From: Patescibacteria group bacterium UBA2196
Lineage (GTDB): Bacteria > Patescibacteriota > Patescibacteriia > UBA2196
DNA: 64,000 nucleotides
Reading direction: 5' to 3'
Assembly (NCBI GenBank): GCA_002328025.1
Contig: DCVE01000013.1
Span: 42,579 to 106,578 of the forward strand
Position 1 is the stretch's first letter. Each line of letters starts with the position of its first letter. The notes below the pieces were generated by a model. The model saw only the letters and a program-made list of their open reading frames with translations. It had not been told where the DNA came from and did no database searches. Of this stretch, positions 26,194 to 62,772 are shown piece after piece. The position numbers and the translations under genes are program-made.

Positions 26194-28139
26194 AAAAAAT
26201 AAAATTTTATATTAATAATAAAGAATATACTGCTTTGGAAAATGATTCTGTTTTGGACGTGGCTTTACGAGAAGGACTAAATGTTCCGCATTTGTGTAAA
26301 CATCCGGATTTGGCCATTAAAGGTAATTGTCGTTTGTGTTTGGTACAAGTGGAAAATAAAGGTGTGGTGACAGCCTGTTCGACTGTGGTGGAAAAAGGGA
26401 TGCAAATTTTTTTAGAAACCGAAGAAGTTAAAAGCTTACGCAAGACAAATTTGGAGCTTATTTTTTCTGAACATCAGGAAAAGTGTGCCACTTGTTTGTA
26501 CCAAGATAATTGTCAAATATTAAAATATGCAGCTGAATTTGGTATAAAAATTTCGCGTTTTGAAGACAGAAAAAAACATTATTCAACCTGGCAGTTTGGT
26601 GATTCCATACGGTTTGATAGTTCTAAATGTATTGATTGTCGAAATTGTGTGGAAGTTTGCGATAAACAAGCCTGTAGTTTTTATGAAATTGCAGAAAGAG
26701 GAGTTGAAACAATCATTAAACCCAAAGGAGAAGTTGGTGGAATTACCTCCCCCCACCCCCTCCTTCTAAAGGAGGGGAGCTTAGATCTGTTAAAAAATGA
26801 TGTAGATAAATTTGATTGTACTTATTGTGGGCAATGTGTGACACATTGTCCGGTGGGAGCAATTAGCGGGGTATCGCATTGGGAGGAAGTTGAAAAATTA
26901 TTAAAAGATCGAGCTGGAAAAATTTTGGTTGTTGAAATTGCTCCGTCTATTCGTGTCTCTATTGGTGAAGAGTTTAATGAACCATACGGTAAGATTGTGA
27001 CTGGGCAATTAGCGGCTTCTATGAAAGCTTTGGGGTTTGATTATGCTTTTGATGTCAATTTGGGTGCCGATTTTACCACTTATGAGGAAGCACAAGAAGT
27101 GGTGGAAATGGTTTTGAATAATAAATCGCGTCCATTATTTACTTCGTGTTGTCCGGCGTGGGTAAAATTTGTTGAATTTTATTATCCGGAATTTATTGCC
27201 CATTTGACTAGTGCTAATTCACCGCACATGTGTTCTGGACCAATTATTAAAACCTATTTTGCCGATTATTTAAAAAAAGATCCACGCGATATTGTGGTGG
27301 TTTCAATTATGCCGTGTACCTCAAAAAAACATGAAATTAATTTAGAGACGCACACCATTGATTTGGGTTGGTGTTTGGAAAGATTGGATTTACCTAACAT
27401 TAAAAATATTTGTCCGGATAGAAAACAACTACAGGGCGTAAAAATAAAAGCCGTGGATTATGTTTTAACCACGCGTGAATACGCCCATCTTTTGCATAAA
27501 CACAAGATTGATTTATCAAAACTTAAAGCAGAAAAATTAGACAAACCTTTGGGCGTCTATTCTGGTGCCGGAGCAATTTATGGCGCGACCGGTGGAGTTA
27601 TGGAATCAGCTCTTAGAAGCGCGGATTATTTTTTCCGAGTCTGGGATGAAACCGATTCATTAAAATCAGTGGTCAAAGGAGAAAATTATAAATTGAAAAA
27701 GAAAAGATTTTCTAAATTATTACAAAGTCGCATTGAGTTTAAAGAAGTGCGTGGTCAAAATGGAATTAAAGAAGCCAGGGTAAAGGTGGGGGGGCGTAAG
27801 TTAAATGTTGCGGTCGTTAATGGTTTGGGTAATGCTAAAAAAATTTTGGATGACCTTAAAGCCGGTAAGGTAAAATATGATTATGTGGAGGTTATGGCCT
27901 GCCCGGGTGGTTGTATTGGTGGTGGTGGTCAGCCCATTCCGACTAATTCAAAAATTAGAGCCCAACGCGCCAACGCAGTTTATGAAATTGATAAAAACTT
28001 AGCCATTCGTACAGCTCACGAAAATCCAAGTCTTTTGGAGGTGTATAATAAATATTTTAAGGGTGATAAAGAAATAATTGAAAAAGTTTTACACAGTAAA
28101 TTTAAGGTTAAACAAAAAACAGGATATACGATAGTATAA
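26190..28139 (+). CDS. hydA: [FeFe] hydrogenase catalytic subunit with N-terminal 2Fe-2S and 4Fe-4S ferredoxin domains
   Basis: H-cluster motifs TSCCPAW (L1), MPCTSKKHE (L2), EVMACPGGCIGGGGQP (L3); CIDCRNCVEVC and CTYCGQCVTHCP ferredoxin motifs. Confidence 0.85.
   Translation: MKKIKFYINNKEYTALENDSVLDVALREGLNVPHLCKHPDLAIKGNCRLCLVQVENKGVVTACSTVVEKGMQIFLETEEVKSLRKTNLELIFSEHQEKCATCLYQDNCQILKYAAEFGIKISRFEDRKKHYSTWQFGDSIRFDSSKCIDCRNCVEVCDKQACSFYEIAERGVETIIKPKGEVGGITSPHPLLLKEGSLDLLKNDVDKFDCTYCGQCVTHCPVGAISGVSHWEEVEKLLKDRAGKILVVEIAPSIRVSIGEEFNEPYGKIVTGQLAASMKALGFDYAFDVNLGADFTTYEEAQEVVEMVLNNKSRPLFTSCCPAWVKFVEFYYPEFIAHLTSANSPHMCSGPIIKTYFADYLKKDPRDIVVVSIMPCTSKKHEINLETHTIDLGWCLERLDLPNIKNICPDRKQLQGVKIKAVDYVLTTREYAHLLHKHKIDLSKLKAEKLDKPLGVYSGAGAIYGATGGVMESALRSADYFFRVWDETDSLKSVVKGENYKLKKKRFSKLLQSRIEFKEVRGQNGIKEARVKVGGRKLNVAVVNGLGNAKKILDDLKAGKVKYDYVEVMACPGGCIGGGGQPIPTNSKIRAQRANAVYEIDKNLAIRTAHENPSLLEVYNKYFKGDKEIIEKVLHSKFKVKQKTGYTIV
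26757..26777 (+). repeat. perfect 9-bp palindrome CCCCTCCTT-CTA-AAGGAGGGG inside hydA (in-frame)
   Basis: seen directly; same element as at 41611-41631 in alaS. Confidence 0.6.
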
Positions 28140-47857: not shown

Positions 47858-48271
47858 ATGTCAGAAAATAAATTAACTACAAAAGAATATTTTCAAGGTT
47901 TGGGTCGCCGCAAAGCAGCCATTGCTCAAGTTAGACTATATGCAGAAGGCACAGGCGAAACAACCATTAACGGTAAACAGGCTGATGTGTTTTTTCCTTA
48001 TTTTGAATTTAAAGATCAGGCTTTTTCTCCACTCAAAATTTTAGGTTTGGAAAAAAAGTTTGATATGTCAGTTAAAGTTGCGGGTGGCGGTTATAGAGGT
48101 CAGGCTGAAGCAATTAAATTGGGGGTGGCCAGAGCTTTGGTGGTTTTTAATGAAGAGAACAAAAAAGTTTTACGTGCCAGCGGATTTTTAAGTCGTGACC
48201 CCAGAATTAAAGAACGTAAGAAGCCGGGCTTGAAGCGCGCACGTCGTGCGCCACAGTGGGCAAAACGTTAA
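47858..48271 (+). CDS. rpsI: 30S ribosomal protein S9
   Basis: GLGRRKAAIAQVRL...C-terminal KRARRAPQWAKR. Confidence 0.9.
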   Translation: MSENKLTTKEYFQGLGRRKAAIAQVRLYAEGTGETTINGKQADVFFPYFEFKDQAFSPLKILGLEKKFDMSVKVAGGGYRGQAEAIKLGVARALVVFNEENKKVLRASGFLSRDPRIKERKKPGLKRARRAPQWAKR

Positions 48272-48296
48272 TTTATTGGTTTATATACTTTTTAAA

Positions 48297-48322
48297 AGCC
48301 CTGTTGTGTACAGGGTTTTTAT
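48297..48322 (+). terminator. intrinsic terminator ending the ribosomal operon
   Basis: CCCTGT-TGTGT-ACAGGG followed by T5. Confidence 0.5.
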
Positions 48323-48324
48323 AT

Positions 48325-48353
48325 TTGACATTTTTATTAAACTGTGTTATAAT
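48325..48353 (+). promoter_or_regulatory. consensus sigma70 promoter (extended -10) driving the GC-rich island
   Basis: TTGACA-17-TGtTATAAT. Confidence 0.5.
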
Positions 48354-48402
48354 ATATTTAGCTAATATAAACAAAAATTCCTTTAAAATGAGTTGAGAGG
48401 AG

Positions 48403-49585
48403 GTGATTTCTTTGTCTCGTCAGATGAATTGCATTCAGTGGGTTCTGGTAGTTTTGGTGGTTGGATTGTTTATCTTTAACCACCGGGAAGTTATCGTAAA
48501 GCAGTACCGTGATAACACGCCCGTATTGACGAGCGAAGAAATCACGGAATTGGAAAACAATGTGGAAAAAGTATATGCCACGGCCAAAGAAAAAATAGAT
48601 GCCGAGACATATACACCGCTGGATTGGCAGCGGGATATCTATTTTTTAAAGTTAAAAATTATTCGTACCATGGGGGGGCACGTACAGCTCTGGGAGCTAT
48701 CGTTTCTATGAGCTGGCTGAAGAAGCCTATCAGTATACCATTGATAGGTATTACACCCCCAAGAGTGATGATCCAAAAAGAACATTGTTTTTTCAGCAAG
48801 AGGTTAACAATGCTCAGGCTCAAGTCATGGCGGAAAACAATGAAAGGGTTGACTGGGCTAAAATATTTAGCCAGCTTCATCTGTTCATGCTGGCTTTTCT
48901 GCCATATTCTTTGCTGATCGTCCTTATTCGCCGTTCAGCAAGATATAAATTATGGCAGATATATTCGGCCGGAGATATCGTCTGGGTCATAATTGCGATT
49001 GGCTTGAGCGTTTTTGGGGCCATCGCTTACCGCCCCGACAATTTCATCCAGAAGCGCGTTGATTCGCAACTGCAAATCTGGAAGGAAAGAATCGGTGCAA
49101 GAGGTTGGCGTTTGGCTTTGGCGTATTTGGTGGCGATTGTTATTTCTTTGGCCACTTTATTTCGCCCGGCCAAATCGCAGGCCCAGACAGTAGTCGAGAC
49201 CAAGATTGTTAGTATGGTCCCAGCTGCCACCATCGCCAATCAACAGGAAGAATCCGACGAGCAGCAAGTTTTTTTCCCAGAAAAGATCGTCGGATTTTTG
49301 CGGAGATTTTTTGAAGAAATTATGAAGGGGATTGAGACTGTTGTTTACAGTTTATTTTCTCTTCTTATTATCCATTTTTTTTCTCCTCCGCTAGAGTTTG
49401 TCTGGGGGATGTGGGCCAGGCCACCAGATGATATTCGTCTTTGGACGATCCGAGCCCTTGGTTCTCGCGCTCCTGCGAATTTTGTTCAATTTAATTCACG
49501 AATTAATTGGACAAAAAACAAAGGAGTTTATCATGAGAACCAAAATTGTAGTTTTTATAATCTTGGCGCTTTTTGCTGTAGCTAG
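48403..49585 (+). pseudogene. polytopic membrane protein gene split by a frameshift at a G7 tract (48670-48676); GC-rich island
   Basis: frame 1 ORF 48403-48711 and frame 2 ORF (open from 48656 to 49585) join across GGGGGGG; both halves carry TM helices; the intermediate ORF 48624-48917 is an out-of-frame artefact. Confidence 0.45.
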
Positions 49586-50132
49586 CGCCAAAGACCCGTC
49601 CAACACTGTGAAGTTTAATGTCGCCACAAGCGGCGGTAAAAACAGTGTTTCGGTAATTGTTTTCCATCTACGGGAAAATACTGGTTTTTTAAGTATTATT
49701 CCTCAGAACGGGATTCAAGCCGGGGTTGGACCAAATTTTTGGATAAACACGCGAGGAGTTAAGGGCTGTCTTTTTACCCCCTTGGCTCTTTGCTCTGTGC
49801 AGGACGATCAAGAAGGAATCGGGGTAGGCGAGGTAAGACTTTGGAACATCTTTTTGGCCTCAAGCGGGTCAGTAAAGGTAAGTTCATTGTCTTATTATTC
49901 CTGGCCTTTGATTCAATCCAAAACCAGGAGTTTTTATACAAAAGACCAGGTTACTTTTAGTAATTTTGGTCTGCGGATTGAGAGCGCTTGGCTTAAAGAT
50001 TGGTCCAACTTGGTCGGACCTGTATATCAATTTAACATCCATCCCAAGTTGAACATGCTTTTCTTCTTAAACCTGAATAAGGAAGTTAAAGAAAAGCGTT
50101 CACTGAAGATGGAGATGAGTGTTAGTTTCTAA
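49533..50132 (+). CDS. secreted beta-rich protein with signal peptide and C-terminal aromatic beta-signal-like motif
   Basis: RBS AAAGGAG 7 nt upstream; signal peptide MRTKIVVFIILALFAVASA; C-terminal ...LKMEMSVSF (alternating hydrophobics, terminal Phe); ~180 aa. Confidence 0.5.
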   Translation: MRTKIVVFIILALFAVASAKDPSNTVKFNVATSGGKNSVSVIVFHLRENTGFLSIIPQNGIQAGVGPNFWINTRGVKGCLFTPLALCSVQDDQEGIGVGEVRLWNIFLASSGSVKVSSLSYYSWPLIQSKTRSFYTKDQVTFSNFGLRIESAWLKDWSNLVGPVYQFNIHPKLNMLFFLNLNKEVKEKRSLKMEMSVSF

Positions 50133-50138
50133 TCAATT

Positions 50139-50170
50139 GCGGGTCGCCGAAAGGACGACCCGTTTTTTAT
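50139..50170 (+). terminator. intrinsic terminator closing the GC-rich island
   Basis: CGGGTCG-CCGAAAGGA-CGACCCG followed by T6. Confidence 0.6.
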
Positions 50171-61905: not shown

Positions 61906-62569
61906 TTATTTTATCAACAGCATCGTATTGAATCTGTAATGGTTTATTTTATCCTCTAACACTCCGGCTCTTTGGTCGACTAGTTTCAAAGGTTTCAATA
62001 CGGATTTAAGTTCAAACATGGAGTATGCTTTTGAATAATGCCCGTTTTGAATCTTATATTTCTTGCCCTTAAAGAGACCTGGTAGCGATTCATCAAATTC
62101 AGAAAAAATGGTATACCCCATGGCTTTTAATAGCACCCTTTACATTTTCCAAATAAGTCTTTTTATATTGACTTCTGATGTGATCCAAAACGCTCCAATC
62201 AATAACGATATCGAAAGCCCCTAGGTCTTTTAAAATATTTTTTACCGTGAGATCGGCAATTTTCAAATGCACTTTTTTGTCACCCCTGAATCTTTTTCGA
62301 CAAAGTTTTATGGCCTCTTTGGAAAAATCAACCCCCCAAACTTCAAATCCGAGTTTGCGAAAATATTCCATATGTCTTCCGTCGCCGCATCCGACATCCA
62401 AAATCCTCTTGGCAGAAGTATTTTTTGCTAGCTTATTTTTCTTGACAATATCAACCACGGATCTGCTCGGCGCGTATTCCCAGCTAAATTTTCGCTCGCG
62501 CCGTTTCTCATTGTTCGAAAAAGCTTTTCTGTAAAATGCCAGCTCATTTATTAAATGTTCCTTTTTCAT
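61906..62569 (-). pseudogene. class I SAM-dependent methyltransferase, frameshifted at a C4/G4 run (~62119-62122)
   Basis: ILDVGCGDGRHMEYF SAM motif in ORF 62099-62569; MTase C-terminus (..YTIFSEFDESLPGLF..) continues in ORF 61906-62136 in another frame. Confidence 0.55.
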
Positions 62570-62772
62570 TTTTTGTAAAAAATATTTTAATAAATAGAAA
62601 AAAAGGGGGGGATTTAAAAATATAATTTTACTTAATGGCGGAGACTATGGGAAGTTTGGTGGCGGTATAATTTGCGTCCAAGCACTCACCGCCAACAAAT
62701 TTGGGTGAATGACTGAGCGAAGCGAAGGAGTGAACTTCATGGTTTCTGTTAGCTGATGTTGGGCTGTTTTTT

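Follow-up and report, generated by a model that had tools for sequence, protein, structure and literature searches.

A one-base expansion of a guanine tract as the probable cause of a split membrane-protein gene in a Patescibacteria lineage

The 64,000-nt stretch of DNA that we have analyzed (the window; Patescibacteria group bacterium UBA2196, contig DCVE01000013.1) contains a gene for a predicted membrane protein that is broken into two reading frames at a run of seven G residues (G7). The likely explanation is a recent slippage frameshift, from G6 to G7, that silenced a lineage-specific gene. Among the possibilities raised for this locus by a previous sequence-only reading, a pseudogene fits the data best, i.e., intact single-ORF orthologues span the break, the homology resumes in another frame and the G7 is reproducible. 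In public records the locus appears as hypothetical proteins of 102 and 252 aa without any relation to each other, where there should be one disrupted gene of ca. 390 codons.

The tract is located at 48672-48678, in the context ...CGTACC ATG GGG GGG CAC GTA.... The sequence-only reading was right about its presence but had placed it at 48670-48676, two bases too far to the left, the AT of the ATG having been counted in. Frame 1 (ORF 48403/48412-48711) ends with ...KLKIIRTMGGHVQLWELSFL* at a TGA stop (48709-48711). Frame 2, preceded by a TAA at 48653-48655, is open from 48656 to the stop at 49583-49585 and reads PWGGTYSSGSYRFYELAEEAYQYTIDRYYTPK.... Their overlap is limited to 56 nt (48656-48711) and includes the tract; the chance that one of three G7 runs per 64 kb hits a given 56-nt stretch is ca. 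0.3%. That both frames cross at the G7, as proposed before, was thus borne out by the position of the tract and by the homology to the relative P0001, which changes frame there. On the other hand, such runs were said to be essentially absent from the rest of the window, and we found two more, at 27788-27794 and 62605-62611. The total of three does not represent an enrichment (5.1 ± 2.8 expected from dinucleotide-preserving shuffles). Three ORFs had been assigned to a single gene, and this holds for 48403-48711 and 48785-49585, because homologues made of a single ORF span the junction, but not for 48624-48917. The latter is in frame 3 (48624 mod 3 = 0, the halves of the gene being in frames 1 and 2), has no tblastn homology and is a chance ORF.

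The effect of tract length was computed by translation. A G6 version would give a product of 393 aa, G7 one of 102 aa, G8 one of 171 aa (in frame 3) and G9 one of 394 aa, so that the length of the tract sets the frame and, with it, whether the product is full-length or truncated. With G6 (ATG GGG GGC ACG TAC, or MGGTY) an ORF of 390/393 aa is restored, with ...TMGGTYSSGSYR as the peptide at the junction; the truncated product from G7 ends in ...TMGGHVQLWELSFL. Translation with one G removed, which had been suggested as a check, gave a 393-aa protein that could be aligned from end to end with intact homologues of 385-392 aa.

Evidence that the two pieces were one gene comes from these homologues. 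They cover 97-100% of the G6-restored protein (79% identity for P0001, 66% for P0002 and P0003, 59% for P0005), and the intact ones align across the junction without gaps. A profile search of 1.84 billion representatives retrieved 15 family members, mostly single ORFs of ca. 360-400 aa that span the break. When P0001 was compared to the window by tblastn, its residues 1-92 were found in frame 1 (48403-48678, up to MGG), and frame 2, from 48656 on, gave residues 85-391. The relatives include one Candidatus Kuenenbacteria MAG, and another is labelled Patescibacteria. In the closest one (L001) the DNA is 87% identical over 8.6 kb, the gene is syntenic, after rpsI, and intact. The only gap in the alignment is one base located exactly at the tract, where the window reads ATGGGGGGGCACG and L001 ATGGGTGGA-AAG. 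Other relatives have ATGGGTGGC or ATGGGCGGC at this site (Gly-Gly as GGTGGC or GGCGGC), the general pattern being ATG GGT/GGC GGA/GGC, without a homopolymer. The Gly codons were interrupted, or there was no tract at this site, in L001, L002, L003, L004, L006 and L011. In the orthologue DNA examined, no G or C run of at least six was found within the gene, with the exception of a C6 in L001 and a G7 in the distant homologue L017. Scans of genome and metagenome contigs matched two relatives and provided no further copies of the tract.

The family is modular. The N-terminal half of P0006 is unrelated, P0024 shares only the C-terminal ca. 90 residues, and in P0020 the N-terminal ca. 250 residues of the family are joined to a different C-terminal part. 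This part of P0020 (526 aa, examined as protein sequence) is beta-rich and similar to the protein encoded downstream of the family member in L018, with the shared pattern GFGQV(K/R)(F/Y)D...IPK(V/A)R(I/V)(S/F)LKGPVE(T/S)G; P0020 has the appearance of a fusion between the partner genes. In addition, positions 49038-50132 of the window, which comprise the 3' half of the membrane-protein gene and the downstream gene for a 199-aa protein, are 80.7% identical in DNA to L006:5602-6702 and L012:4083-5183, from a non-syntenic organism. In that organism the unit is found after a FemAB gene instead of rpsI, with an unrelated 5' half of the membrane-protein gene, and in L004 it is preceded by a GIY-YIG gene. 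From these comparisons the family looks like a mosaic in which the C-terminal module is conserved and the N-terminal one varies.

The surroundings of the gene are described in Table 1. The first terminator separates the ribosomal-protein operon from what can be read as a two-gene unit, composed of a promoter, a membrane protein with five predicted transmembrane (TM) segments, an overlapping secreted protein of 199 aa (P0010) and a terminator, apparently found only in Kuenenbacteria-like Patescibacteria. The predicted promoter would drive both genes. The likely start of the first gene is TTG 48412, the one used by the Logan gene call and equivalent to the MSR(Q/P)MN with which the homologues P0002 and P0003 begin; it is favoured over GTG 48403 because the latter overlaps the ribosome-binding site. 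The first start codons available in frame 2, TTG 48785 and ATG 48827, are not preceded by any SD-like motif or ribosome-binding site, although a clear SD is missing as well at several real genes nearby. The public annotation gives the 5' fragment as a protein of 102/99 aa (P0007, P0008, P0009) and the 3' part as a 252-aa protein starting at ATG 48827 (P0004). The gene of P0010 begins within the membrane-protein gene, overlapping its last 52 nt, and was found 3' of it in every relative examined.

Table 1. Features of the two-gene unit and its borders (positions in the window).
Feature	Position	Strand	Remarks
rpsI (S9)	47858-48271		Upstream of the terminator at 48293..48321
Intrinsic terminator after rpsI	48293..48321	+	12-bp stem then U-run, -15.6 kcal/mol, z = -3.3
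Predicted sigma-70-type promoter	48325..48353	+	TTGACA, 17 nt, TG-extended TATAAT; 12/12 consensus matches
Ribosome-binding site GGAGG	48399..48403	+	8 nt upstream of likely start TTG 48412
5' gene fragment, frame 1	48412..48711	+	TM1, predicted helices 1-2, then 10 out-of-frame residues HVQLWELSFL and TGA
Chance ORF, frame 3, 97 aa	48624..48917	+	Frame that a G8 allele would read
3' gene part, frame 2	48656..49585	+	Helices 3-4, four further predicted TM segments, conserved C-terminal region
G7 homopolymer, one extra base	48672..48678	+	Frame 1 to frame 2
Downstream partner gene, 199-aa signal-peptide protein P0010	49534..50132	+	Own AAAGGAG ribosome-binding site
Intrinsic terminator closing the unit	50139..50169	+	GC-rich hairpin then TTTTTT, z = -3.3

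The GC content of the unit (48400-50150) is 42-50%, compared with a mean of 35% for the window. As the unit is syntenic in the closest relative, it has not been inserted recently in this lineage. A phage or mobile origin was considered and rejected, since no relatives were found in viral contigs and there was no PHROG match. The GC content (0.42-0.50 vs. 0.35), the high conservation and the poor structural model also led us to consider a structured RNA in place of a protein. This candidate was rejected too, since Rfam gave no meaningful match in E-value mode. Variation at the third codon position dominates along the gene, which is a protein-coding pattern of substitution.

The hydropathy scan placed TM1 at residues ca. 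12-30 and the other TM segments at ca. 157-175, 189-207, 236-254 and 312-330. For the product we found no significant family match, only sub-threshold ones in Pfam and none in NCBIfam, PHROGs or PDB. An AF2 model built on the family alignment was poor overall (mean pLDDT 50.5), with a confident part at residues ca. 45-145 that consists of four helices. In the model, the frameshift is predicted to fall in the loop of residues 91-98, between helices 2 and 3 of this only confidently modelled domain. The partner P0010 appears rich in beta-strands and ends in ...MSVSF; it had no match in Pfam, NCBIfam or PHROGs. The P0010 of the window and that of L001 are at least 90% identical, and the membrane proteins only 79%.

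The gene carries no sign of decay beyond the tract. Compared to L001, the dN/dS was 0.23 for codons 1-92, 0.15 for codons 92-141 (the part that is upstream of any start codon) and 0.24 for codons 141-393. In a parsimony branch test the ratio of synonymous to nonsynonymous changes was 28:39 in the branch of the window vs. 36:41 in that of the intact L001 (Fisher p = 0.62). Neither approach gave a signal of relaxed selection, and the restored frame had no further stops, indicating that the lesion is young. The lesion is recent, or the gene is still in use; the same lack of relaxed selection is to be expected of a gene that is used and either switched reversibly or rescued by slippage.

The most probable course of events starts from the ancestral Gly-Gly codons ATG GGY GGC suggested by the alignment. 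A synonymous mutation in the first Gly codon, to GGG, would have created a G6 run, and slippage during replication would then have added one more G. Translation would now end at 48711, after ca. 92 native residues; this point corresponds to the loop that joins helices 2 and 3 in the predicted four-helix domain, and the truncated product would keep TM1 and half of this domain. The remaining ca. 300 codons, including four TM segments, are probably silent, since they have no start codon with a ribosome-binding site. The gene of P0010 retains its own ribosome-binding site and would lose the translational coupling to the upstream gene. The G7 could in principle revert to G6. The gene is part of a very small module of membrane protein plus secreted protein of Patescibacteria, and three of the lineages examined carry a broken copy, which suggests that it is dispensable or has been repeatedly selected against.

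It is unlikely, but has some points in its favour, that the DNA is G7 and low-level expression of the gene persists, the frame being partly restored by slippage of the RNA polymerase or by +1 slippage of the ribosome on GGG GGG. A +1 shift on G GGG GGG re-pairs perfectly and would give MGGTY as from G6, GGG is the rarest Gly codon here (10% of the Gly codons) and the downstream frame is fully kept. However, the relatives do not share this site, and it is therefore not a programmed signal: in the homologues, which consist of one ORF each, neither the slippery run nor the layout in two frames is conserved. Besides, we saw no prominent stimulatory element; the hairpin located at 48685-48715 has z = -1.9 and no obvious conserved role. 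Rescue by transcriptional slippage has been documented with longer runs of A/T (about nine residues at least), and for efficient +1 frameshifting the A site has to be stalled, e.g., by a stop codon or a very rare codon. Two other ways of decoding the locus were discarded. Frameshifting by -1 at the heptamer G GGG GGG, with the hairpin that follows it, would enter frame 3, without homology and with a hairpin of only z = -1.9, and readthrough of the TGA at 48709 by an alternative genetic code would soon meet TGA, TGA and TGA TAG in frame 1, while the homology switches to frame 2.

The sequence-only reading had put forward a phase-variable switch, in which the tract would slip at a high rate between G6 (ON) and G7 (OFF) and reversibly control an operon for a membrane or surface protein. 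We consider a true contingency locus of this kind improbable. The translations do agree with it (full-length ORF with G6, truncation with G7), the product is a predicted membrane protein paired with a predicted secreted one, the downstream part has no sign of decay and, in addition, the homologue in L017 is independently split at a different G7 and would also need G6 to be ON. But the tract is missing from all the orthologues examined at the DNA level, and G7 runs are not enriched in the window. Only the G7 allele was seen, in every assembly of this population that covers the tract, and exact look-ups of the G6, G8 and G9 products (three or four alternative starts each) retrieved none of them among ca. 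15 billion public proteins. The tract is also shorter than the cut-off of G≥9 that was used in a survey of the Neisseria phasome (PMC5953494). Furthermore, a review has stressed that hypermutable repeat numbers should be ones not expected from genome composition alone (PMC11868660), and this tract does not exceed that expectation. Finally, the third disrupted member of the family (L018) is broken without a homopolymer, which fits recurrent loss better than switching.

The two other disrupted members can be described as follows. L017 (positions 673-679; Logan SRR22388067, a single contig of 1159 bp) encodes a distant homologue, P0018 (151 aa), split at a different G7 around residue 150. The junction reads ...GAT TGG TCC AGG GGG GGT TAA and the homology to the family resumes in the +1 frame; with one G removed, the protein aligns to P0005 without gaps. 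A homology search with this G6-restored protein gave no matches, and missed its own fragment too. This second G7 is the only hint for a switch, resting on one short contig, and could hint at a recurrent use of G tracts. In L018 (positions 953-962; GCA_040961635.1, contig JBFOMZ010000025.1) the protein P0019 (279 aa) is frameshifted at the junction GGTGTTAAAC, which contains no long homopolymer, and P0016 matches over residues 1-256 in one frame and over 261-402 in a different one. This could be either real decay or an indel error of long reads. Altogether, the disrupted lineages are 3 of roughly 16, suggesting that the gene is dispensable and has been lost repeatedly.

Decidedly doubtful is the more specific idea of a young working on/off switch, i.e., that this orphan family of envelope operons repeatedly evolves short poly-G tracts (at residue 92 in the window and ca. 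150 in L017), both of them seen in the OFF state. If this were true, the tracts would toggle the membrane protein together with its secreted partner, and to our knowledge no contingency locus would have been described before in the Candidate Phyla Radiation. In a full-text search of the literature, we found no paper on homopolymeric phase variation in Patescibacteria. Mixtures of G6 and G7, if shown, would make this locus a first candidate for phase variation in that group; otherwise it is an ordinary young pseudogene.

That the G7 is an error of sequencing or assembly, the true genome having G6 and an intact gene, is very unlikely. Homopolymers are the classic sites of indel errors, the downstream frame is perfectly preserved, and the read sets all come from one project, possibly one platform and maybe one DNA preparation. 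Against an artefact, G7 was read in the DNA of the JGI assembly 3300001580, whose 62-kb contig matches the window without mismatch over the region compared, and in the Logan contigs of SRR943331, SRR943333 and SRR943334, three of the five matching runs (the others being SRR943329 and SRR943330) and those in which the tract is covered. The read sets are not mere copies of each other, since one Logan contig has a SNP at 48124. The ends of the Logan contigs (48526, 48729, 48768, 48846, 49490 and 49504) are not clustered within one k-mer of the tract, so there is no hint of a length bubble. The 280,980-bp contig at NCBI/ENA carries P0004 and P0007, and apparently also reads G7, given that the 102-aa product arises only from this allele. 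Illumina sequencing rarely produces consensus indels at 7-mers. The JGI assembly is listed as an Illumina assembly from Suncor tailings pond 6 (PMC5029510), and SRR943333 represents raw data of the same Suncor tailings pond sample (PMC5389517). As a control, the G7 at 27788-27794 (GTG GGG GGG CGT) is in frame within a conserved gene, a 649-aa [FeFe]-hydrogenase ORF with matching Pfam domains on both sides, and the remainder of the window is densely filled with long intact ORFs. Therefore, the frameshift is very probably real, and the consensus error that had been allowed for before is made unlikely by the JGI assembly, by the contigs of three Illumina runs and by the G7-specific protein in the NCBI/ENA contigs.

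A tolerated split, with the pieces working as separate polypeptides and no pseudogene at all, would agree with the modularity of the family (P0006, P0024, P0020) and with the annotation of both pieces as CDS in public records, but we find it hardly credible, because the 3' piece has no start or ribosome-binding site until 48785 or 48827, so that codons 92-141 would be lost, the break is mid-way in the only confidently predicted domain and the layout in two ORFs at this position occurs in no relative.

Elsewhere in the window, at 61906-62569 on the minus strand, the 156-aa ORF of a SAM-dependent methyltransferase overlaps with a second one of 76 aa that follows it in a different frame. When both were joined at the GGGG/TTTTTT region, the match to Methyltransf_23 was extended from profile positions 15-97 to 15-151 and the score from 45.5 to 54.2 bits, so that this is probably a second split gene. 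The G7 at 62605-62611 (C7 on the minus strand) is intergenic, 36 nt upstream of the ATG of the methyltransferase, and is followed by a T7; it is likely located in the promoter or 5' leader of that gene.

Among known systems, slippage is used in prfB-type +1 frameshifting and in the rescue of poly-A tracts in endosymbionts, dnaX and IS elements. The locus described here is similar to prfB-type frameshifting and transcriptional-slippage rescue in that a full-length product needs a change of frame at a slippery homopolymer. It differs in that the site is not conserved and lacks an in-frame stop or hungry codon as well as an SD-like stimulator upstream, and the run is a G7 rather than a long A/T run. 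With the poly-G/C contingency loci of Campylobacter, Neisseria and Haemophilus (Moxon's "localized hypermutation"; PMC11868660) it shares a poly-G within the 5' part of an envelope-protein gene and a tract length that, in the computed translation, sets it ON (G6) or OFF (G7). However, the tract has seven residues instead of the at least nine of the survey cut-off (PMC5953494), is neither conserved in orthologues nor over-represented and has no length polymorphism across assemblies. Furthermore, the organism is a free-living or episymbiotic Patescibacterium of an oil-sands tailings pond and not a host-adapted pathogen. The likeness to frameshift pseudogenes produced by homopolymer slippage is closer to the reading that we prefer: a one-base mononucleotide expansion disrupts an ORF that close relatives have intact, the homology goes on in the other frame and different assemblies reproduce the lesion. 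Here, in contrast, secondary lesions and relaxed selection have not yet followed, and the tract itself appears to be new, derived from a synonymous change in a Gly codon.
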